Shown here piece by piece: positions 38,522 to 55,750 of a stretch of DNA of 64,000 nucleotides (positions are counted from its first letter, which is position 1; every line of letters starts with the position of its first letter). A model generated the notes under the pieces. The model did not search any database. It was not told the origin of the DNA and worked only from the letters and a program-made list of their open reading frames with translations. This stretch comes from Candidatus Hodarchaeota archaeon. GTDB lineage: Archaea > Asgardarchaeota > Lokiarchaeia > Sigyniarchaeales > SOKP01. The stretch covers positions 128,001-192,000 of the forward strand of contig JBHLJY010000003.1 of NCBI GenBank assembly GCA_048887225.1. Direction: 5' to 3'. A program made the translations under genes and the position numbers.

Positions 38522-39142
38522 TTAAGCAGCACTTTCCATTGATGTACCGGAAAGTTTCTTATAATGGTTTAATACTGCTTGTCGTGCTGCGTATACGAAG
38601 GCTCTCTTCACGTTTATTCCAGTAATTGCTATTGTTTCGTAGATGAGACAGTGTGTGAGCTTAGCTGTATCTAAAACAGTTCTAATCTTAGCTATCTCCA
38701 CTAGGTCTTCTAAATCACGTTTATTAGCTAATAAAACTAATGGTACTTCAGGAGTAGGGTCATCTGGACTTGGAGGGATTAATTTATTTCCATAAAATTT
38801 TAACAATTCTTTCAAACTCCATATATTTTCCTCCCATTGGTCTATTAAAGAATCCCATGTAAAGATTACTGCATCAGTCCCTTTTAAAACAGTCTGTCTT
38901 TGGAATTTATGTCTACGCTGACCAGCGACAGTATAAACTTGAAAAACCACATTTGAAACTCTTGCTACGACACGATCAAAGAATAGAGTACGGCCTGTAG
39001 GATCTTGTATTTGTTGCATATCTCCTGATGCTAAACCTTCTCGATTGTAGACCCATTCTAGGGCTGTAGTTTTACCTCCAAGGCTTGGCCCATAAAAACA
39101 AATTTTGAAAACAAGTGTTCCATCCCCACGACGTGATGGCAT
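38522..39142 (-). CDS. MglA-like small GTPase
   Basis: GPSLGGKTT, GRTLFFD, TVAGQ, NKRD, ETIA. Confidence 0.88.
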   Translation of the reverse strand: MPSRRGDGTLVFKICFYGPSLGGKTTALEWVYNREGLASGDMQQIQDPTGRTLFFDRVVARVSNVVFQVYTVAGQRRHKFQRQTVLKGTDAVIFTWDSLIDQWEENIWSLKELLKFYGNKLIPPSPDDPTPEVPLVLLANKRDLEDLVEIAKIRTVLDTAKLTHCLIYETIAITGINVKRAFVYAARQAVLNHYKKLSGTSMESAA

Positions 39143-39259: not shown

Positions 39260-41464
39260 TTAATAGTTAAAGACAATTTGATCTACGATATTATTTAGCG
39301 CATTTAATTTTTGAGTAATAATTATTTTTACTTTTTCTGTATTTATATCGGGATTTTTCATAAAAAGATCTTTTACAATAGATTCGCACTTAATTGCTTT
39401 TCTAGCTAATATTTTATGAGATTTGTTTGTTTTATCATATAGAGGTATTGGAAATGAGAATGGTCTTTTATGAATGTGTCTAGAACTCTTTATAAGTTTG
39501 ATATTTTTAGATAAAATTGGTGTGTTAAGAATGGCACATAAGTAATAAGCCTCTTCTTTAGAATCAGTCGAAAAATAATAATTTTCGGAGCTAACAACAA
39601 TTTTATTTTTTACGTTTTTAATTACTGCTGCTTTTAGATTAGATCCACTAGCATTATAAACGATTATATAATTTTTATTATCAATCTGTTTGGATAATTT
39701 ATTCCAATAATTTAAATTAGAGAATAACGTCTCAATGTTGCTTGTTTTTTTCTTTTTTGCTTGATATATATTGTTCATTTCGTTATAAAAGTTCATTGCG
39801 TATGTATATTGGTTAAGATATTCAAAATTAAATTTAAATTGATTATTAACGGGTAAGAAAACGTTTCGCTTACGTTTTAAAAGAAAAGGAATTAAATCTT
39901 TATTTAAAAACGTTTTATATTGAAAGCTTACTTCAATTTTTTTGTTTTGAAAATAATATTTCCAATTCTTTTTTGCTCTTGAATATATATCAGGATCGGT
40001 TGAGATTTCTAAATAATTATCGTCTTTTTTCTCTATTCGAAAAAACACAAGAGTTCTTGGAACTAACGTTGCTCCTTGGAAGAATTTGTTTTTATATCGA
40101 CTAACTGAGATTTTATTTATAATTTTTAATTGAGGTTCTGGAAGTATTAGCTTTACACCTTTTTTTTCGATTTTTAGACTCGAATAGTACGTTTGTTCAT
40201 AAAGCTCTAAATCATCGTTAAACACCTTAGCTTTAATCGGATATTTGTCTTTTATAGAAATCTTACTATCCTTACCAATATACTCCGCTTTCAAACAGAT
40301 ATGATTTATATTGAAAAAATAATTAGTAGGAAAATCCCAAATTTCTATATTATTAAATAACGAAAATGATCGAAATTTATAACAATGATCCCCGTTTAAG
40401 ACGCTTTTAGTAATTACAAAGAATATTTTACCTCCAATTTTTAAGAATTTTGTTGATGTATAAAAGAATAAAGTAGCTATTTCTATATGTGTGATGTATT
40501 GGCTAAGTGGTTTGATTCCAAATTCTTCTGCTAAATCACGAATTTTAATTTGATAATCTTTATCACTAATATCTTTATAAGTTAACCAAGGTGGATTTCC
40601 TATTATCAGATCAAAAGAATTATATAAATTTTTTAAGTTTATAAACATCAAATTTTCGTAATGCTGAGGAAATAGCGAATCTATTACATAAACATTAATA
40701 TTTGGGAGGATATCTTTCTGTGTGTCAAAATATTCTAAAAAAATTAAAAGAATATTGACTTTTGCTGTCATAGTTGCTAAAGGATTAATATCAAACCCGA
40801 ATACATTATTAATTGCTTTTTGTTTTAATTTATTTGGATTCTCAGAATTAAGGATTTTAACAATTATCTTAATTAAAAAATTTCCCGAACCGCAAGCTGG
40901 ATCTAAAACTTTTAAACCAACATTATAAGAATCGTCTACCATTTTACGAACGAGGTTAGAAGGAGTGTAGAACTCTCCTATTTTATGTCTAGTTATGGTG
41001 AAAAATATTTGCTGGTAGATATCAAGAAATAAATCTTCATAAGCCAAACTGGTAGATTCAATTATATTATATATTTTTTCAAATAGTTTCTTGTTGAAAT
41101 TTGTCCAATTATAGAAATAACCGAATTCAAACAGGTTGAATGCTTCTAGATTATTATTCTTACAATCATCGTAGCATTCTTCAAAATCGATATTTTGAAT
41201 AAAAGAGAGTTTTATTATTATCAAGGATTTCAATAACAAGGCAAAATATGTATGTTTCAAGAAAAGATCTGAGCTTAAAGATTCAGATTCACCAAAAATA
41301 TTCTTGAAAGTCTTATTCCATTGTTGAAATTTTACTTCAAATTCTTTTTTCTTGGATAAGGTTTTTTTTTCAAAATATTTCATTGATTCGTAGAAAAATT
41401 TTGAACTTAGACCAAAAAATTTAGCAATATCTTCACTACCTATAAGCTTTTTAGTACTAACCAT
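39260..41464 (-). CDS. N6-adenine DNA methyltransferase with C-terminal TRD (type IIG/Eco57I-like M-S part, no evident nuclease domain)
   Basis: GEFYTP, LDPACGSGNFL, GFDINPLA, IGNPPW; C-terminal YYL.AILN TRD-like region. Confidence 0.82.
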   Translation of the reverse strand: MVSTKKLIGSEDIAKFFGLSSKFFYESMKYFEKKTLSKKKEFEVKFQQWNKTFKNIFGESESLSSDLFLKHTYFALLLKSLIIIKLSFIQNIDFEECYDDCKNNNLEAFNLFEFGYFYNWTNFNKKLFEKIYNIIESTSLAYEDLFLDIYQQIFFTITRHKIGEFYTPSNLVRKMVDDSYNVGLKVLDPACGSGNFLIKIIVKILNSENPNKLKQKAINNVFGFDINPLATMTAKVNILLIFLEYFDTQKDILPNINVYVIDSLFPQHYENLMFINLKNLYNSFDLIIGNPPWLTYKDISDKDYQIKIRDLAEEFGIKPLSQYITHIEIATLFFYTSTKFLKIGGKIFFVITKSVLNGDHCYKFRSFSLFNNIEIWDFPTNYFFNINHICLKAEYIGKDSKISIKDKYPIKAKVFNDDLELYEQTYYSSLKIEKKGVKLILPEPQLKIINKISVSRYKNKFFQGATLVPRTLVFFRIEKKDDNYLEISTDPDIYSRAKKNWKYYFQNKKIEVSFQYKTFLNKDLIPFLLKRKRNVFLPVNNQFKFNFEYLNQYTYAMNFYNEMNNIYQAKKKKTSNIETLFSNLNYWNKLSKQIDNKNYIIVYNASGSNLKAAVIKNVKNKIVVSSENYYFSTDSKEEAYYLCAILNTPILSKNIKLIKSSRHIHKRPFSFPIPLYDKTNKSHKILARKAIKCESIVKDLFMKNPDINTEKVKIIITQKLNALNNIVDQIVFNY

Positions 41465-41760: not shown

Positions 41761-42303
41761 CTATCGCATGAATGAGGGAAGCATTAGGTTAAAGATTTCA
41801 GCAATTATTTTTATACTTGCTACTTCTTTAATGGTAGTTATTATTAATACACTTCTCGAAAGCTCGTCTCGATCTAGAGTGCCACCAGAATATATTGCTA
41901 AATCATTATTAAACATCAATAAGTATTTCACATATGGATTGTTTATTACGTTAATTCCTTCAATGCTTTTTAACTCATCATAAATTCTTCGCTCTTTTTT
42001 CTCATATACATTTCGATCGCGTGTTATTAATAAAATTGGAATCCCTCTTTGAGCTGCCCTTTTTAATTCTATACTATAAAAATCATCTATTTTTGGGGTC
42101 ACAATATTTAGTTGGTCTTGTGTAGTTTGGATGAACTCTATTAATTTCTCGTTAAGTAATTCCTTGTTGTCACCTTCACCTGAAGACTCTATAACTATAT
42201 TACCTACTAATGCTAACACTCTTTTTTCGAATTCTTCTATTTGTTGTTTTAATCTTCGATTTTCTAGCCGTAATTCATTTATTCGATCAGTCAAGTCAGA
42301 CAA
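41761..42303 (-). CDS. Coiled coil + degenerate PLD-like (TrmB-C-like) domain protein
   Basis: LNIVTP.ID, AAQRGI..LLITR, and VKYLLMFN..AIYSGG.L where HxK(x4)D..GSxN is expected. Confidence 0.6.
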   Translation of the reverse strand: MSDLTDRINELRLENRRLKQQIEEFEKRVLALVGNIVIESSGEGDNKELLNEKLIEFIQTTQDQLNIVTPKIDDFYSIELKRAAQRGIPILLITRDRNVYEKKERRIYDELKSIEGINVINNPYVKYLLMFNNDLAIYSGGTLDRDELSRSVLIITTIKEVASIKIIAEIFNLMLPSFMR

Positions 42304-42410: not shown

Positions 42411-44912
42411 TTATAGTTTGTTCCACGGCTTACCGAAATGTAAAAATGAACTAATTGCGATACCACTTTTACATTGTTGCCTAGCTCTAAGAAGTGAAGT
42501 TCCTTGGCTTTCATTATTAAATAAACTAAGGTAAAAATTCGCTATAATACTTTGAGTATCTTCATTAAAAAATGGATATGTCCTAGTTATTATACCTATA
42601 ATACGATTATAGTCAAATTGCCTAATGATCTCACCAAAAATTTCTAAGACATTATTTAGTTTTTCTCCTTCAACGTTAAAAACCTGCGCATTAAAAAACA
42701 AAAATGGATGCGAATTAGATTTATTTTTATCTATAGCCTTCTTTATTTCATTAAAGGTTATTAGAGTGTTATCATTCGTAAGAATATAACTATCTTTGGG
42801 ACTCATTCTGGAATAAAAAATATTTCCAACAAAATGAATAATATGAAAAGCCCCTTCTGAAATATTTGATAATATTTTTTCGCGAGTGGAATGTATTCCA
42901 GATAGAATAGTAAATTGATTAACATTTTCCGTTGTATTAAAAAAATCTGTAATGTGATTTAATTCATCGTGAGCATCAGGGAACGGAAAGATTAAAGTTT
43001 TATTTTTGTACTCCTCATTCCATTTTAAAGGCCCTTTTGCATTTGTAGCTTCAATTAATAAAACATTAAATAAGGTCTTAGTTGGGATTGTAATGGATTC
43101 CTCTTGAGCTAATTGTCCAAATTGAATACCAGCAAGAGGAGGTTCGCCGATTTTATAGCCACTTGAATATTTTAACATGAAAAATTTATCGTCATCATAC
43201 AAGAAACCAAAAGGTATTGTCATTTTATCTAAAATAAAATAAATATGAGGTATAAAATCTAACTTTTTAACTTTTAATTGCTTGAAAAAATCTCTCAATA
43301 AGTTTGGTAAGAATATATATAACAGCTTTCCAAATTCTATTATATTAAATTGATATCTCTTTTCTTTTCTTCCTGAAAAAATGTCATTAAAAATTTCCAT
43401 TATTTGATGATCGTTCCATAATTCATCAGTTATTTTTCCCTCAACTATTGCATAATCCTTAGATATCATACGAAAAGAAATCAGACCTTCTGAATTAATC
43501 CGTATTATTGCTTGATTCAAAATAAAATCAGGATTAATCGATGTTAAATCTTCTTCAAACGAATATATTTGATTTTTAATTGATTCACACTTATTGTATA
43601 AAGAATTTAAGTCAGTTAATTTTTCTCTAATATTTTCATCTAAATATGGGATTATTTTTTGTGCGAGATTAAAATCTTTTTCTTCGTATAAAGCGCGATA
43701 GAACATCATTCTCCAAAAATCAGCGGTTTCTAACGTGAAAAATTTGCTTTTAAATTGCCAGAGATAATTACAAGTATAGAAATAATGATAAATTTGAACC
43801 GGAGTTTGAGGTGTTTTTAAATGATTGCTTAATTTTTCCATAGATAAAAGCAAATATTTTCTTTCTTTAATATCAACAAACTTTTTACAAGCTTCAACCC
43901 ATAACTCAATTAAAGAAACGTCGTACCCTAAATCTGTTTTATCCATAAAAATATCTTCCAAAAAATCATATATTTCATAAGCAATTAAAAACCGATTTCT
44001 ATTTATAGAAAAATCAACAAATTTACGGATATAACTTAGGGCAACTTCAATAGTTTGAAATTCTTTTAATTTAGTAAAAGCATATCTTATTATTATAATA
44101 ATCCATGTAAATTCTCCAATGTTATTTAAATAATAAATTAATTCCTCCAAATCAGATAGAATTACACTAAAATTCTGCTCATTTACTGAAATTTCTCTCA
44201 TATTGGAGAAATCTTCTTTTAAATAATTTGGTAAGCGTTTTGCTATAATTTTATTAATAATTTGAACGAAATCTAGAGATTCCTTTGGTGAACCTTCAAT
44301 GAGGTGATATTTTATATTAACATTTTCCATAAAAACAAATAGTAATAACGCTTTTGTGCTCGGTTCCAGGTTATAAAGAATTTCTCCTAAAATTTTTAAG
44401 CTAAAACGGAATAAATCTGATGAAAATATTCTTTTTCTTAAATATGCTAATAAGAATTGTAATTCGATAAGTTTGAGATAATCTCCCCTTTCTTTAACCT
44501 TAAGTGAGAATGAATTTATAAATTTAGTTATTCCTTCAATAGATAATTCATCTACTTTTATGAAACTTTTTAAAAGAATCATCCAAAAATTATTAAATAA
44601 ATCAAATTCATCTAAATTGGAAAGAAAGGAAAAAAAACGTTTGTAAGCGTCAATATATCTGATTTTGTCAATTTTATCTTTTTGACTTTTCAAAGAATTT
44701 AAATAAATCCACCATGAATTTGCAATAATCATTATTAATTGACGCTTTTTTTGAGGAGCTAACCATTCTGTTTTTTCAATTTCAAAATATAAATTAGAAA
44801 ATAATCTACTTGCCCATTGATGATTAGCTGAATTAAGTAATTGCCTTCCTTGAAGTATTCCTTTTTGAAAATTCATTAAGAATTGATTTTTAATATCAGG
44901 ACTAATTGTCAT
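42411..44912 (-). CDS. Alpha-solenoid protein with C-terminal CHAT (caspase-like) domain, catalytically degenerate
   Basis: About 450-aa helical N-part; GKLLY, IPF..L, A.DEL..I, IIHFVGN, FFNAQ, FY..L, SLLRARQ, F..FGKP CHAT landmarks. Confidence 0.72.
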   Translation of the reverse strand: MTISPDIKNQFLMNFQKGILQGRQLLNSANHQWASRLFSNLYFEIEKTEWLAPQKKRQLIMIIANSWWIYLNSLKSQKDKIDKIRYIDAYKRFFSFLSNLDEFDLFNNFWMILLKSFIKVDELSIEGITKFINSFSLKVKERGDYLKLIELQFLLAYLRKRIFSSDLFRFSLKILGEILYNLEPSTKALLLFVFMENVNIKYHLIEGSPKESLDFVQIINKIIAKRLPNYLKEDFSNMREISVNEQNFSVILSDLEELIYYLNNIGEFTWIIIIIRYAFTKLKEFQTIEVALSYIRKFVDFSINRNRFLIAYEIYDFLEDIFMDKTDLGYDVSLIELWVEACKKFVDIKERKYLLLSMEKLSNHLKTPQTPVQIYHYFYTCNYLWQFKSKFFTLETADFWRMMFYRALYEEKDFNLAQKIIPYLDENIREKLTDLNSLYNKCESIKNQIYSFEEDLTSINPDFILNQAIIRINSEGLISFRMISKDYAIVEGKITDELWNDHQIMEIFNDIFSGRKEKRYQFNIIEFGKLLYIFLPNLLRDFFKQLKVKKLDFIPHIYFILDKMTIPFGFLYDDDKFFMLKYSSGYKIGEPPLAGIQFGQLAQEESITIPTKTLFNVLLIEATNAKGPLKWNEEYKNKTLIFPFPDAHDELNHITDFFNTTENVNQFTILSGIHSTREKILSNISEGAFHIIHFVGNIFYSRMSPKDSYILTNDNTLITFNEIKKAIDKNKSNSHPFLFFNAQVFNVEGEKLNNVLEIFGEIIRQFDYNRIIGIITRTYPFFNEDTQSIIANFYLSLFNNESQGTSLLRARQQCKSGIAISSFLHFGKPWNKL

Positions 44913-44938: not shown

Positions 44939-46087
44939 TTACCCTTTATATTCTGGATTTGGTTTCCACCCTTCTTGTAACTGTTTTTTTGAGTATAATA
45001 TTGATGCCCCAATCCACGACATATTTTCACGACCAGAAACTGCAAACACATTAATTTTATCTCTTATTTTTTCGGAAAAATACTTAGTTAATTCAAGCTT
45101 CAATCTCTCCTTTAATCCAGGAATTAAACTACCTCCCCCCGCAAGAATAATATTAGGAAGTAATTCTTCCCAATTCTCTCGATCCCAGGATTTGATAACT
45201 TTAACTATTGCTTCATCTAATCCAAAATAATCTATATGAATTAATCCTGGATTAAATAAAGGTTCAGATAACATGAATCGCTCCTCGTTTATTTTTAAGC
45301 TGGATCCATCGGGAAAATTAACTTTTTGGTCGTAATTAGTAAGTCCATCTCTTATGCTATTGCTTTCACCTTCAGCATCTAATACACATAGTGAATATTT
45401 ATCTTTAATTTCTTTTGCAAGCCATTTATCAAGATAAAAATTCTCTTCTGACCCCTTTCTAGTTAATATCATATTAAGGAAATAATTTGTCAAATCCTTC
45501 CCTGCTATAGGAAAGATATCTCGTGCCATAATATTTGTGAATCCGTGAAAAATCGTGGAAAAATAAGTATTGGATTCTCCCATATTAACTACAACTCCGG
45601 TGGTTTTCTTTAAAGTTTGTAAAATAGCTTGACTTTCAGATAAAAATAATAAATAAGGGAAGTTTAAGTCTCGAAAAAAAATTTGTTCCAACTTAGTTTT
45701 TTCCAATTCTGTCATAAAAAAAGGAGAAATCACAATTATTGATTGTTTATTTTGATATTCAGATTGGATATTTAATTGTTGATAATAATAATGAAAAAAT
45801 TTTGAAAAAATATTGTAATTATTCTCTTTTTTAAACTCATGAATATTTAATATATTTTGGTATTTTAAGGCATTAAGGCCATATAAGTGCCTTTCAGTAT
45901 TTTCTTCAATAAAAAGTTCAGCAAGTCCATCAACTACATCTGATTCAAATATATAATCTGTAGCATCCACATGAACGCTAGGTACAATAATTTCTGGTGA
46001 ATCATCACCAGCCCAGCCTAAACGAAAAGTACTACTTCCGATGTCTAAAATCAAAGGTCTTAATTGCTTATTATCAGCAGATAACAT
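44939..46087 (-). CDS. Actin-related protein (divergent Asgard actin/ARP)
   Basis: LDIGS..RLGWAGDDSP, TTGVVVNMG, AGKDLT, EIK, PDG..ERF..EPLF.P, LAGG.S.IPG, SWIGASIL. Confidence 0.92.
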   Translation of the reverse strand: MLSADNKQLRPLILDIGSSTFRLGWAGDDSPEIIVPSVHVDATDYIFESDVVDGLAELFIEENTERHLYGLNALKYQNILNIHEFKKENNYNIFSKFFHYYYQQLNIQSEYQNKQSIIVISPFFMTELEKTKLEQIFFRDLNFPYLLFLSESQAILQTLKKTTGVVVNMGESNTYFSTIFHGFTNIMARDIFPIAGKDLTNYFLNMILTRKGSEENFYLDKWLAKEIKDKYSLCVLDAEGESNSIRDGLTNYDQKVNFPDGSSLKINEERFMLSEPLFNPGLIHIDYFGLDEAIVKVIKSWDRENWEELLPNIILAGGGSLIPGLKERLKLELTKYFSEKIRDKINVFAVSGRENMSWIGASILYSKKQLQEGWKPNPEYKG

Positions 46088-46119: not shown

Positions 46120-46902
46120 TTATAACGAAAAAAGCTCTTTTTCATGAATATATTCGTCTGTCAATCTTTTTAATTGATATTCTTTAACTTGTAATTCAAG
46201 CATCCCTAAAACCTTTTTAAATTCAAGGGACATGGTTTCAATATTTACGCCAGAAACCTTTTCGATTTCATCCCTTTTCGTCTTAAATTGACTTAAATTC
46301 AATTTTATTTTATCGAATAGATTGTTTATTGAAGAAATTAAATCCTCGGTGTTTTTCTTGGTGAATTTTCGCATTTTCCTTAATATAGCTAATATATTGC
46401 TAATACTATTTTCCCATTGATTATATCTTTCGTTATAACCTTTCATAAAATCCTCTAAAAATACTTGTAAATTCTTATAAATATTATATTTAGGTGGTGT
46501 AGTCTCAATAGGTTTTTGAATGGGGGCACTACTTTTAGTTGTTTTTCTTTCAGATATAGGGATATCTTCTATAAGATAATCTTCAACAATTTCGCTTTTT
46601 CTCTCATAAGATAACTGTGGTTCAATTTTTTCTTCTGCTTTTTCTTCACGATGATACCAAGTTTCTTCAGATACTCCTGTTAATAATCCCTGTAAATCTA
46701 TTTGAGCCTCCTTGGCAGAGCTTAAAGCAGAACTCAATGCCGAGTCTAATGATAATTCCGTTTCTGGTATTTCTGCAGCTTTTAAAGTAGCACCCGAAGA
46801 AATTTCTAGTCCTTTTTTCTTGGTCGTTTTTAGAGCATCTTCCAATGAGGTGTCTGTTTTTTTCTTTTTAGACGATTTTTTTTTCTTTTTATTCTTAGCC
46901 AT
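46120..46902 (-). CDS. Hypothetical protein: Lys-rich N-tail, disordered linker, C-terminal coiled coil
   Basis: MAKNKKKKKSSKKKK; heptad-like helical C-terminal 110 aa. Confidence 0.7.
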   Translation of the reverse strand: MAKNKKKKKSSKKKKTDTSLEDALKTTKKKGLEISSGATLKAAEIPETELSLDSALSSALSSAKEAQIDLQGLLTGVSEETWYHREEKAEEKIEPQLSYERKSEIVEDYLIEDIPISERKTTKSSAPIQKPIETTPPKYNIYKNLQVFLEDFMKGYNERYNQWENSISNILAILRKMRKFTKKNTEDLISSINNLFDKIKLNLSQFKTKRDEIEKVSGVNIETMSLEFKKVLGMLELQVKEYQLKRLTDEYIHEKELFSL

Positions 46903-47593: not shown

Positions 47594-49768
47594 TTATGTT
47601 TTATGGGCCTTCAACTTCACTGTAAGGTCTCTTGCTCGCTTTGAATACCAGACCAATAAATCTCCAGCGTTTTCGGGCTTAAAATATTCGCCACCGCATA
47701 AAGTTGCAGCACGAGTCATTAATGCGTCATTAGGATTCCCCAACCCAACTATATAAATGACTACATTTAAATTCTCAGAGAATCTCTTTGCTGCTTCAAA
47801 AAACGCATTACCATCAGTAGGTTCACCATCAGTTAACAAAACAATCATGGTTGGCTGATCTGGGGATATTTTTTCAAATTCGTTTAGAATTAATTGAGCT
47901 TGTTCCATAGCATGTCCCATATTGGTGGCCTGTCCATATGAAGAGGCGATTCTATCAACGATCATCTTCGCAGCCTCCTCTAGAATTCCTTTTTTACCAC
48001 TAGCGGAATCCATATAAAATCCACCTCCAAAGGGTAGTACTTGGGCCTCATCAGCAAATCGGATAACAGCAACTTTTTCTCCAAAACCACGACCAACTTT
48101 TTCACTTAGGAATAGAACTGCTGCAAATGCAGCCGAAATTCTTCTTGGGATGTTGATGCCATCCTTGAATTTTTTTAAGAATTCTTGAATTTCACGAGAT
48201 TCCATTGCTGCCTTAATACCCTCAATTGCTGGCGCAATATTAGTTACAAGCACATCACGTGCCATCATGGATCGACTTATGTCAATTATCAAAATAGCAT
48301 TAAAAGGTATCAAACCCAATGGTGATAGGGTTAATGTTGTATTTTTCGTAATTTGAGCTAATATATCACCGGTTAAGTCTGGAACGCAATCAATAATAGA
48401 ACAAGCAATATTAACTGCGTTCCATCTTAATTTAATTCCCTTGAAAATGATATAATTTGAAAGCCAATCCTTTAAAGCTTCTACACTCTGTCTAGCATTG
48501 CTTATAATTTCCCACATATTCTCGCCAGAAATGGGTGAAACCCCTAAAGAAACGCTTTGTAAAGGAATGATTTGTCGTTGATTTTTTGAAATTTTTACTT
48601 CAAAGCTACCAATTCCAGACGCTTCTAAAATTTCACTATCAATAATAATTATATTATCAGGAACTGTTTCTACAACAACAACCTTACCCGCTCCAATTGC
48701 TCCCGTAAGTTCATCTTCGAATGCTAAAACATCATTATTTTGAATTGAAATTGTATGTTGCGTTCTTGGACTTACTTGACAAAAACCATTTAAATTTGGC
48801 TGCGATTGGACTTCTAATATTATTTCAGACGCTTTTTGAATTGGTGGCTCTGTAGAATATATTACGATTTGTTCAGCTTGAATATTCGTATCTTCTAATG
48901 TGTCTTTGCTCATTCTTATCTCAGTATCGCTAATTTGCGCTTGATCTATTCTCGCAGAACCCATAGATCTCGTTAGAGGGTCTTCCCATGCGATCAACAT
49001 ACCTTGTCCAAGGCCTAATTGTTGCAAAACGTTAAGACTTAGTTGTACTCGACCTCCTTCTATGTTATTATCTATAACAGGAGTTTGAATTATCCCTTTT
49101 TTCTGATTTTTTAACATATTTATATCAATCCTATTAGGATAAGGTTCTACTGGAGCTACTGGAGCGATGGTTTCTTGCGTCGGCATTGGTTGAAGTGTTG
49201 ATGGTGGTGGTGGCATTGAAGAAGGAGGGGCCCTTATTTGAGGAGGAGGTTTAAACTGTGGTGTTGGAGTAAATTGTGTGGGTGGGGGTATTTGTTTAGG
49301 TGGTGGTGGGTGTGCGGGCAGAGGTGCTTGTATAGGTTGTGTTGGTTTTATAGGTGGAGGTGTTGGTGCGAGCTGAGATGATGGAGGTGGTTGAGGTACA
49401 GGTGTAAATTGAGGTGCAACACTTGGTTCTGGTGGTTGAAGAGACGGTTGAGAAGTTAAAGCGGATTTTGATGGTACTGTAGGTTCGGCTTCTTGTGAAA
49501 TAGGTGGAGCTGCGGTGCTTGGTCTTATAATAACTTCAATACCTGTAAATTCTATTTCATCAATGATGTTTTTTGAAATCATCCCAGCAAAATCTAATGC
49601 AGAATTAGAAATTTCAGCAAGAGCAATAGTACTTCTGCCATTCTCTGGATTAATAATTTCTACAGACGATCTTGTTGAAATACCAAGTTTTTTAGCATTG
49701 GACGGACTAATAATTGCTTTATTTTTGGTTTCGTCTTTAATATCTACAAAAATCTTTATTTCTGGCAT
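47594..49768 (-). CDS. Proline-rich protein with Cdc48-N-like double-psi barrel repeats and C-terminal vWA domain
   Basis: MIDAS DISRS..T..LTDG; about 125-aa Pro/Gln/Thr-rich tract; three (I/L/V)S...LG/SI repeats. Confidence 0.75.
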   Translation of the reverse strand: MPEIKIFVDIKDETKNKAIISPSNAKKLGISTRSSVEIINPENGRSTIALAEISNSALDFAGMISKNIIDEIEFTGIEVIIRPSTAAPPISQEAEPTVPSKSALTSQPSLQPPEPSVAPQFTPVPQPPPSSQLAPTPPPIKPTQPIQAPLPAHPPPPKQIPPPTQFTPTPQFKPPPQIRAPPSSMPPPPSTLQPMPTQETIAPVAPVEPYPNRIDINMLKNQKKGIIQTPVIDNNIEGGRVQLSLNVLQQLGLGQGMLIAWEDPLTRSMGSARIDQAQISDTEIRMSKDTLEDTNIQAEQIVIYSTEPPIQKASEIILEVQSQPNLNGFCQVSPRTQHTISIQNNDVLAFEDELTGAIGAGKVVVVETVPDNIIIIDSEILEASGIGSFEVKISKNQRQIIPLQSVSLGVSPISGENMWEIISNARQSVEALKDWLSNYIIFKGIKLRWNAVNIACSIIDCVPDLTGDILAQITKNTTLTLSPLGLIPFNAILIIDISRSMMARDVLVTNIAPAIEGIKAAMESREIQEFLKKFKDGINIPRRISAAFAAVLFLSEKVGRGFGEKVAVIRFADEAQVLPFGGGFYMDSASGKKGILEEAAKMIVDRIASSYGQATNMGHAMEQAQLILNEFEKISPDQPTMIVLLTDGEPTDGNAFFEAAKRFSENLNVVIYIVGLGNPNDALMTRAATLCGGEYFKPENAGDLLVWYSKRARDLTVKLKAHKT

Positions 49769-49991
49769 ATTTTTTCAAATTGTATTCTTTTTTAAGGAAT
49801 TATTTAATTACATTAATTTTTTAAGAAATGACAGTAATTAAATTTTGAGATTGTTTTCGTAGATTGAATATATTTTACTTATTCTTCAAATATTTTTAAT
49901 GGTATTTAAAAGTTCAAATGGTTTTTATTTTTTTATAAGCACTTAAAAAAGCTTTTCTAAATGCGAGGAATAAATGATTACTATGATTAGA

Positions 49992-50381
49992 TTAAAGAGC
50001 GGGGTATCTTTTACCTATTTCTCCTGCATAATACCTAAAGACAGTGACAACTTTTCCTAAATCTGCTATCTTTCTTGAAGCGCCCATAAGGAAGAACCGA
50101 CCAGCAGCGCTAAGTATGATAAATGCGTCCTCACCTCTTAATACTACTTCCAACATATTATGATATCCCATTGTATCAACAGCGTCAGAACCACTCTTCA
50201 TAACAACTGCACTTAAACTTGAGAATAAATCAGGTTCAATTTCATAGCTTGGAATACAGCTAAAGGCCAATTGTAAACCTTCTCTAGTCACTAACGCGAG
50301 CGCTTCAAGCTCAGTGTGTTCAGTAATATTCCCTAAAAAATTCGATAAGCTTTTAGCCTCGTCTGGAGTTAAACTAACCAT
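49992..50381 (-). CDS. Roadblock/LC7 domain protein
   Basis: ALVTREGL, SLSA..M, EVVLRG, DLG.V pattern. Confidence 0.85.
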   Translation of the reverse strand: MVSLTPDEAKSLSNFLGNITEHTELEALALVTREGLQLAFSCIPSYEIEPDLFSSLSAVVMKSGSDAVDTMGYHNMLEVVLRGEDAFIILSAAGRFFLMGASRKIADLGKVVTVFRYYAGEIGKRYPAL

Positions 50382-54796: not shown

Positions 54797-55750
54797 TTAT
54801 TGCGACTTACTTAAAATTTTATATGCTACGTATATAAATGATTCATTAATATTTTCTCCTGTTTTTGCTGATGTAAGAATATAATGAAAACCAAGCTCAT
54901 CAGCAACAGATTTAATTTCTTCTTCGCTTATTACAATCTTATCTTTTAAATCAGATTTATTTCCTACTATTACAATTGGAATATTAGAGGATAAGTCTTT
55001 TGTAATATCAGCATACCAAGATTTAATACTCTTAATATTTCCTTGACGAGTACGATCTATAACTATAAATGCTGCATTTGCTCCACTATAAAATTGAGCT
55101 CTATACGGCGCCATAAATTGGATTTGTCCCGCAATATCCCAAATAACGAAAGTTATTTTAGTTTTTTCATTTAAATTATAATCCTTTTTTGAGATTTCAA
55201 CTCCTAATGTAGAAATATAATCATCTTTAAATTCATTTTTAGTAAATGTTCTTATTATAGAACTTTTTCCAACTTGATAATCTCCCGTAATAATTACTTT
55301 TTTTGTAAAGTCTCCTGTCGAAAGAGTCCCCTCTTTTGTTTTTGAAAGAAATTGAATCGCATCTGGGATTTCAAGAGAAATATCTTCCTGTCCCTCTAAT
55401 ATTAATTCAATTTTTCCTGCTATGTGCTCTGATAGCACTCTTAATTGAACATCAGGAGTAGATATTTCAGTTATAGCTGTTAAAATTGAATTTGGTCCCT
55501 GCGAACAAAATACAAATTTCTTATCGCTTGTAGTAGTCACATTAAAAAAGTTATTTTCAACACCAAATTCATCTTTTAATTGATCGATATACTTTTCTAC
55601 GTAGGTAGAAATTCCACCTATAACAATATCGTCTTGCTCCTCTCCTTCTGAAATAATGACAAGGCCGTCTATATCGCATACAGCTACTACTATTACTCCT
55701 TCTATATTATTCATATAATTTAATACTAAAGTTTTCAGTTGTTCTTTCAT
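54797..55750 (-). CDS. Roadblock/LC7 domain fused to Rab-like small GTPase
   Basis: N-terminal GV..VAVCDIDGL roadblock; GDYQVGKS, STLG, WDIAGQ, NKSD, TSAK. Confidence 0.88.
   Translation of the reverse strand: MKEQLKTLVLNYMNNIEGVIVVAVCDIDGLVIISEGEEQDDIVIGGISTYVEKYIDQLKDEFGVENNFFNVTTTSDKKFVFCSQGPNSILTAITEISTPDVQLRVLSEHIAGKIELILEGQEDISLEIPDAIQFLSKTKEGTLSTGDFTKKVIITGDYQVGKSSIIRTFTKNEFKDDYISTLGVEISKKDYNLNEKTKITFVIWDIAGQIQFMAPYRAQFYSGANAAFIVIDRTRQGNIKSIKSWYADITKDLSSNIPIVIVGNKSDLKDKIVISEEEIKSVADELGFHYILTSAKTGENINESFIYVAYKILSKSQ

Follow-up and report, generated by a model that had tools for sequence, protein, structure and literature searches.

A dyad-less CHAT-family protein encoded beside an actin-related protein in one order of Lokiarchaeia

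Most characterised prokaryotic TPR-CHAT and SAVED-CHAT proteins are components of anti-virus or conflict systems. Csx29 is the TPR-CHAT protein of the type III-E CRISPR craspase, the anti-sigma factor DdvA contributes a periplasmic TPR-CHAT, and SAVED-CHAT, in which a SAVED sensor replaces the helical solenoid, is an active, filament-forming protease activated by cyclic oligonucleotides. Here we describe a protein of related build from Candidatus Hodarchaeota archaeon (assembly GCA_048887225.1; Asgardarchaeota, Lokiarchaeia, Sigyniarchaeales). Its gene lies at 42411..44912 on the minus strand of a 64,000-nucleotide stretch of contig JBHLJY010000003.1 (positions 128,001 to 192,000), which we call the window and to which all coordinates refer unless another locus is named. 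The protein lacks both members of the His-Cys dyad of active CHAT proteases and is encoded directly downstream of a gene for an actin-related protein (ARP).

Translation of the minus strand yields an uninterrupted open frame of 833 residues, closed by a stop codon at 42411-42413, in which a two-lobed CHAT/caspase-fold module comes after about 450 residues of helical repeats. It confirmed the intact frame and the two altered motifs, HFVGNI and FFNAQ, that an initial annotation of this DNA had pointed out; HFVGNIFYSR is encoded at 42807-42836 and FFNAQVF at 42678-42698. CHAT (PF12770) is the sole Pfam family detected in the protein at E ≤ 0.1, with a match that covers residues 538-725 and profile positions 15-184 of 289 (E 2.5e-6; 27.6 bits, cut-off 24). 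Among 11 divergent members scanned with PF12770, seven match at E ≤ 0.01, three of those at or above the cut-off. No NCBIfam family was found for the protein, and a sequence search against PDB chains gave no match at E ≤ 10. From 1.84 billion representative proteins, just 66 were retrieved at E ≤ 1e-3: family fragments, full-length members including divergent ones of 19-27% identity, and a few proteins matching only residues ~640-833, which are ordinary CHAT proteins (Pfam CHAT, 93-145 bits).

Using BLASTP, we compared the protein with the active CHAT proteins P0180 (E 3e-17) and P0168 (E 7e-18). HFVGN is placed opposite HYAGH/HFAGH, and FFNAQ opposite FLNAC/FVNAC. Because the alignment runs motif to motif, Asn697 (codon 42822..42824, minus strand) occupies the position of the catalytic His, and Gln743 (codon 42684..42686, minus strand) that of the Cys in the NAC motif. 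The initial annotation was right to place Asn and Gln at the dyad positions, but its consensus motifs, HFxGHG and (L/F)xAC, differ from those of the active relatives examined here, which read H[FY]xGH[AG] and [FLI][VLI]NAC.

The loss of the dyad extends across the family. We aligned the last 340 residues of 25 deep family representatives and six active CHAT proteins using MAFFT. The His column holds Asn in 20 representatives, Tyr in two, and Val, Ser and Thr in one each; the Cys column holds Gln in 13, Arg in nine, and Lys and Leu in one each, with one representative truncated. His is thus found in 0/25 and Cys in 0/24 representatives, as opposed to 6/6 for both residues in the active CHATs. 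Nowhere in these 340 residues did we find a near-invariant His or Cys across the deep members, and S708 and D714, which alone among the polar residues come close to invariance, are scaffold positions that active CHATs have too. The rest of the module is better preserved: P536, P567, P705, S708, D714, P736, F793, G804, A810 and G827 are each retained by 22 or more of the 24 deep members, mostly in common with active CHATs, and P567, P705, S708, P736 and G827 are present in 6/6 true CHATs, which bears out the earlier statement that other CHAT landmarks persist. The family also carries an insert of its own after the first strand of the caspase lobe (residues 624-631; 43020..43043, minus strand), in which N624 is kept in 23/24 and P628 and W631 in 24/24 deep members, in columns that are gapped in 5-6 of the 6 true CHATs. 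Judged by its sequence, the 833-residue protein is a predicted pseudo-protease: with the dyad gone, cleavage by the clan-CD mechanism should be impossible, and the protein probably lacks catalysis of any kind.

The predicted structure supports the assignment of the fold. In an AlphaFold2 model based on 20 aligned sequences (predicted local distance difference test, pLDDT, 79.9; predicted TM-score 0.73), residues 5-448 contain 22 helices, residues 465-494 form a small sheet, and an alpha/beta module extends to residue 826. By DSSP of the model, residues 1-448 (43569..44912, minus strand) form an alpha-helical, TPR-like solenoid, an arm on which no Pfam TPR match was found. The first CHAT lobe, residues 465-612 (43077..43520, minus strand), consists of the sheet, helices at 502-547 and the segment 567-610, which carries the conserved pattern 'MTIPF..LYD..F..LKYS' and in which model confidence is low. 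Residues 613-833 (42414..43076, minus strand) are assigned by structure matches to the caspase/hemoglobinase-fold lobe, formerly the catalytic half.

A Foldseek search against the PDB returned 41 matches at E ≤ 0.001, led by Csx29/TPR-CHAT (7zoq_A, E 4.5e-9), human separase (9hvy, 1e-7) and DdvA (8rot_A, 1.5e-7), with low global TM-scores of 0.22-0.25 (0.23-0.25 for separase). In domain-level alignment, repeated by a structure scan independent of Foldseek, the nearest single-domain structure to residues 613-833 is SAVED-CHAT 8tl0_C (Z 17.9, root-mean-square deviation (rmsd) 2.8 Å over 183 residues, 15% identity), and caspases and metacaspases follow at Z 12-14 (metacaspase 4, Z 14.3; caspase-7, Z 14.2), so that the C-terminal domain is of caspase fold, as the initial annotation had assumed. 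The independent scan also aligned residues 465-833 as two lobes with the C-terminal region of separase (5fc2_B; Z 11.2, rmsd 4.1, 275 residues aligned) and with gingipain RgpB (4ief_B; Z 10.8, 267 aligned). Co-linear alignments of the whole protein were obtained with Csx29 (7zoq_A; Z 11.3, 426 aligned, residues 7-831) and human separase (9hvy_A; Z 11.3, 411 aligned, residues 7-833), and DdvA aligns at Z 14.8-14.9 over model residues 298-827.

Csx29 and DdvA share with the protein a helical-repeat arm followed by a two-lobed CHAT module in the same order, and they are its best whole-protein Foldseek matches. They differ from it in retaining the His-Cys dyad, where the family described here has Asn and Gln, and in their partners, which are of CRISPR or sigma-factor type rather than an actin-family neighbour outside any defence context. 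A gRAMP/Cas7-11 effector or a Csx30-type substrate was not seen beside the gene, whose neighbours are p260, the ARP and a PLD-like protein in 14/14 loci (see below). In DdvA, the dyad is H862/C907, according to PMC11506125, where the groove of separase is also described as holding securin, an uncleaved pseudo-substrate. By analogy, this kind of holding is what we propose for the CHAT-family protein. Separase likewise combines a solenoid, a pseudo-protease lobe and a caspase lobe. The label 'separase-like' used in the initial annotation therefore stands for the architecture of solenoid plus CHAT but not for kinship: the protein has no Peptidase_C50 (PF03568) match at E ≤ 0.1, whereas the active CHAT relative P0180 does match that family (E 5.6e-7), and its best matches are prokaryotic TPR-CHAT and SAVED-CHAT proteins. 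Unlike the family described here, separase matches C50, is about twice the size and has its dyad; the family is restricted to one archaeal order, with no cohesin or kleisin link seen. The model comparisons thus confirmed the architecture of solenoid plus CHAT, which is the general TPR-CHAT plan and fits prokaryotic members no less closely than separase, and 'separase-like' should not be over-read as separase ancestor.

Two pseudo-caspases also appear among the structure matches, c-FLIP(L) (3h13_A, Z 10.1) and Raptor (5wbi_A, Z 9.3), a likeness of fold alone with no sequence relation. The protease-like domain of c-FLIP(L) and the caspase-like domain of Raptor bind instead of cutting; Raptor pairs its domain with a solenoid scaffold, and c-FLIP acts through pairing with an active paralogue. 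In the host genome (98% complete), the CHAT-family gene is single copy and the sole PF12770 match, which, unlike the situation of c-FLIP, leaves no active paralogue for which the protein could be a decoy.

To describe conservation, we scored 8000 candidate homologues and obtained 262 proteins at E ≤ 1e-3, labelled as Promethearchaeota or Lokiarchaeota metagenome-assembled genomes. The best 120 of these 262 are 54-100% identical to the query over 96-100% of its length and measure 800-879 residues. Both N697 and Q743 are kept in 120/120 of them; F699, Y700 and S701 are likewise invariant or nearly so, and the best-conserved stretch of the solenoid is residues 281-400 (block conservation 0.83-0.90). 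The ratio of nonsynonymous to synonymous substitution rates (dN/dS, NG86) is 0.19 for the whole gene and 0.24 for the caspase lobe in the pair L001-L002 (dS 0.105), and 0.096 and 0.12, respectively, in L003-L004 (dS 0.84); more distant pairs, in which dS is saturated, give 0.14-0.16. Orthologues therefore share Asn and Gln under purifying selection (dN/dS 0.10-0.24), as had been suggested for a conserved pseudo-protease.

Of 400 genomes of the phylum searched with a profile, 130 gave a family match, the host genome included. It is present in 117/134 genomes of family f1, 7/14 of f2 and 1/1 of f3, and absent from the 4 genomes of f4. Full-length matches occur in 125/149 genomes of f1-f3, plus the host genome. 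In 2/3 genomes of f5 and 2/2 of f6, the matches cover the caspase-lobe part only, in frames of 238-566 residues, and the 27 other Asgard families have none (0/241). The CHAT family is a single-copy invention of one Lokiarchaeia order, neither pan-Asgard nor eukaryote-linked. In two f1 genomes seemingly without the gene (G264, G256), the PLD-like gene stops at a contig end or is a fragment, and we attribute the absence to assembly gaps. In-frame TAA/TGA/TAG stops or split matches were seen in G020 (C48:2203-4688), G006 (C104, C169), G198 (C3:104886-107468), G173 and G174; these copies may be broken genes or assembly errors.

The CHAT gene belongs to a row of four genes on the minus strand: p260, encoding an orphan protein (46120..46902), the ARP gene (382 residues; 44939..46087), the CHAT gene 26 nucleotides further on, and a PLD-like gene (180 residues; 41761..42303). 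The ARP matches Pfam Actin (PF00022) over residues 9-380 with 164.7 bits (E 3.4e-48), and its nearest solved relatives are actins at about 140 bits. It is the weakest of the four actin-family genes of the host genome, which score 440, 285, 219 and 160 bits in the genome search, and is 28% identical to the Lokiactin-like protein of the same genome. Its phosphate-2 loop (residues 164-173) reads VVNMGESNTY, as compared with VIDIGDGVSH in that paralogue, so that two Asp and one His are replaced. These substitutions suggest that ATP hydrolysis may be altered or slow.

In 14/14 loci from other genomes, p260, ARP, CHAT and PLD-like genes are colinear on one strand, including three loci in which the CHAT protein is merely 24-25% identical. 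The spacer between ARP and CHAT (-4 to 87 nucleotides, median about 26) is the shortest in the row. Across the order, we counted 122 genomes in which a CHAT-family match was listed and the ARP matched at orthologue level; the ARP lies upstream of CHAT on the same contig and strand in 118 of them, with a median gap between the matches of 53 nucleotides, and in the four exceptions the two are on separate contigs or 3.8 kb apart. The position directly downstream of an ARP, noted from the single stretch of DNA, is thus strongly conserved. Maximum-likelihood trees of CHAT and ARP (15 taxa) share 7/12 splits, and the conflicts are confined to weakly supported nodes.

The two genes are also absent together. 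Genera g14 and g17 yielded neither the CHAT family nor an orthologue-level ARP (ARP matches are at paralogue level, ~1e-62, or lacking). Inspection of the locus in three of their five genomes showed that p260 directly abuts the PLD-like gene (L063 7294-8568; L064 7119-8374; L065 6556-7794). Since ARP and CHAT are jointly missing and their flanks abut, we conclude that they form a two-gene module that was gained or lost as one inside the p260-PLD pair. p260 and the PLD-like gene look like the older pair, into which ARP-CHAT was nested or from which it was deleted.

We predicted a complex between residues 245-833 of the CHAT protein and the whole ARP. The score was 0.39 (runs 0.39, 0.00 and 0.39), as compared with 0.00 for the best of three controls, and was graded as weak support; agreement among the runs is at least 0% of contacts, and the partner pLDDT is at least 80. 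In calibration, the mark was reached by 116/157 solved complexes and 2/215 mismatched pairs, with 18 of the 157 solved complexes and both passing mismatches at 0.60 or under; as our own alignments were used for the CHAT-ARP prediction, these counts apply only approximately. With linkage and joint absence as a strong prior, the prediction lends mild support to an interaction and does not demonstrate one.

Together, we consider it somewhat probable that the protein is a lineage-specific pseudo-protease kept as a non-catalytic binding or scaffold protein that works with the ARP, most likely in a physical complex. It consists of a TPR-like arm of helical repeats and a CHAT module of two lobes, in which the caspase fold and most landmarks are kept and the dyad is lost, and selection would maintain the protein for binding or scaffolding. 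The CHAT protein and the ARP encoded ~26 nucleotides upstream would act as a two-gene module, in which the solenoid, the remodelled former active site (N697, Q743 and the N624-P628-W631 loop) or both would hold either the ARP itself or a peptide from it. Solenoid residues 281-400 and the remodelled site are the likely interaction surfaces. The module probably cooperates with p260 and the PLD-fold protein, which lacks the HKD residues. As to the cellular role, regulation of the cytoskeleton is one possibility, and an ARP switch coupled to membranes or polyanions via p260 and the pseudo-PLD is another; both the binding of the ARP and any such role are presumed here from conservation and gene context. 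A more elaborate version, which we regard as speculative and rather doubtful, is a dedicated archaeal ARP complex, in which the solenoid and the former protease clamp an actin-fold ATPase that does not polymerise, sense or gate the state of its nucleotide and link it, by way of p260 and pseudo-PLD, to membranes, polyanions or Lokiactin filaments. If true, Asgard archaea would have invented a scaffolded ARP machine independently, in parallel with the ARP-containing complexes of eukaryotes, and an Asgard ARP would have its first assigned partner.

Asgard archaea encode several actin-related proteins of unassigned role, and one ARP subfamily now gains a specific, conserved and testable candidate partner. 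In the accessible part of PMC9834061, Lokiactin alone was localised, and the three homologues of the ARP clade were studied by tree building and reverse-transcription quantitative PCR. The presence, alongside the dead CHAT, of a second enzyme-fold protein, a PLD fold without HKD residues, points to a small machine of retired enzymes. We found no published description of the CHAT family or of the ARP-CHAT gene pair in the literature searched. Separase is named in an Asgard paper solely as one of a list of cohesin interactors, and a paper that turned up for the CHAT domain in Asgard archaea deals with archaeal extrachromosomal elements; the text of preprint 10.64898/2026.10.28.762692 contains neither 'caspase' nor 'protease', and its supplements, which lay outside the search, might list the cluster. 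The family also supplies a well-supported archaeal example of a clan-CD protease that has become a non-catalytic protein.

Other explanations have to be weighed against a scaffold that serves the ARP. The protein could be a non-catalytic scaffold for another partner, such as p260, the PLD-like protein or some other cell component, with the adjacency to the ARP reflecting operon co-regulation only. Since all four genes are colinear in every locus compared, linkage cannot single out the ARP; the complex prediction is weak, and the long disordered region of p260 could offer a docking peptide. Yet in L063-L065 CHAT and ARP are both missing while p260 and the PLD-like gene persist, and from this joint absence it follows that CHAT tracks the ARP and not p260 or PLD. 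With the ARP-CHAT spacer the shortest in the row and the C-terminal motif of the PLD-like protein conserved even without CHAT, we judge another partner unlikely. Improbable to a greater degree is a role in anti-virus defence or conflict. The nearest solved relatives are craspase Csx29, SAVED-CHAT and DdvA, a neighbour has the nuclease-like PLD fold, and 9/14 loci have a type IIG-like methyltransferase downstream and 11/14 an AbrB/MazE-like gene upstream. PADLOC, however, gave no match for the CHAT protein, ARP, p260, the PLD-like, AbrB-ACT and VWA proteins or the GTPase; single copy, conserved synteny and low dN/dS throughout the order contrast with the mobile and patchy nature of defence islands, catalytic residues are missing from the two domains that might act as effectors, and the GC content around the cluster (about 27%) lies inside the low range of the window (26-36%).

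That the protein is still an enzyme, a protease or other hydrolase with moved residues or Asn/Gln-assisted chemistry, would account for the strong constraint on the old site, where N697, Q743, F699, Y700 and S701 are near-invariant among the best 120 of the 262 homologues, and relocated catalytic residues are known in some pseudoenzymes. The dyad positions differ among deep branches, however, and no alternative pair of nucleophile and base is conserved in the CHAT module, S708 and D714 being scaffold positions, so that hidden catalysis is quite improbable. Still harder to sustain is an archaeal homologue or forerunner of eukaryotic separase, that is, a eukaryotic signature protein. The solenoid and two-lobed caspase module are co-linear with separases, as described above, but prokaryotic CHAT proteins match better, C50 is not matched, the dyad is absent, the family is limited to f1-f3 of one order, and no kleisin or SMC context is present in the neighbourhood. 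As to a decaying gene that by chance is still open in the host genome, for which the in-frame stops and split matches in G020, G006, G198, G173 and G174 might speak, it is refuted by intact frames in nearly all genomes, homologues of 54-71% identity at full length and the low dN/dS, and its probability is close to nil; the orthologues lack His and Cys as well, so this copy is not a lone degenerate.

Several observations weigh against the ARP-associated scaffold that we favour. The dyad residues vary across deep branches (Asn, Tyr, Val, Ser or Thr; Gln, Arg, Lys or Leu), which indicates a site without uniform constraint throughout the family, and pseudoenzymes sometimes keep activity via relocated residues. 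Gene adjacency speaks for co-inheritance and probable co-transcription, not for binding. Homologues of 1459-4165 residues, as expected of a fused ARP-CHAT protein, were not found at E ≤ 1e-10, which is weak evidence. Five f1 genomes (G187, G189, G217, G219 and G246; 92-99% complete) have no match to the CHAT or PLD-like protein and ARP matches at paralogue level or none, so the module is either dispensable in them or unassembled. Finally, the complex prediction, which covered residues 245-833 of the CHAT protein, gave weak support: one of its three runs scored 0.00, and no interface was returned.

The row is bounded by the genes for p260 and the PLD-like protein. In p260, a Lys-rich N-terminus is followed by a disordered middle that varies and by a helical C-terminal part of ~120 residues that is conserved. 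Searches of Pfam, NCBIfam, PDB profiles and the Atlas turned up no relatives of p260 other than its own Asgard cluster. In the PLD-like protein (model pLDDT 87), a coiled coil with a long helix at the N-terminus is joined to a PLD fold. It aligns with NucT (6ehi_A; Z 19.2, rmsd 2.0, 141 aligned) and also matches Nuc, FAM83B, Zucchini, TrmB and MITD1; a conserved His or Lys at the HKD position is absent from its alignment, and no NCBIfam family was found for it. Its gene is commoner than the CHAT gene, occurring in 125/154 genomes of the order, including 3/3 of g14 and 2/2 of g17. All 49 loci scanned encode a C-terminal LP[ST]FMR motif. We considered that this tail might mimic a product or pseudo-substrate and dock in the groove of the dead protease, and rejected this as the main model: the motif is equally conserved without CHAT (L063-L065) and ends exactly at the Arg in only 23/49 loci, a count in which some genomes occur twice.

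Upstream of the cluster, 11/14 loci contain an AbrB+ACT gene. Downstream in the window, at 39260..41464 on the minus strand, is an Eco57I/MmeI-type (type IIG-like) N6-adenine methyltransferase of 734 residues, with no nuclease-family Pfam match and the only one of the proteins submitted to PADLOC to find a match there. At 47-64% identity among the loci that contain it, it is unusually stable for a restriction-modification gene. Further along, an Arf/Ras-like small GTPase (38522..39142, minus strand) is 94% identical to two congeners, as compared with 61-71% for the cluster genes, and such a GTPase occurs within about 6 kb of the cluster in 7/14 loci. On the other side, the region 47594..50381 (minus strand) encodes a protein of 724 residues that carries a VWA domain and a long segment rich in Pro, together with a Roadblock/LC7 protein at 49992..50381, and 54797..55750 (minus strand) encodes a 317-residue Ras/Roc-type GTPase with a 150-residue N-terminal extension. 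The VWA, Roadblock/LC7 and Ras/Roc-type GTPase genes make up a run of eukaryote-like signalling genes around the cluster.

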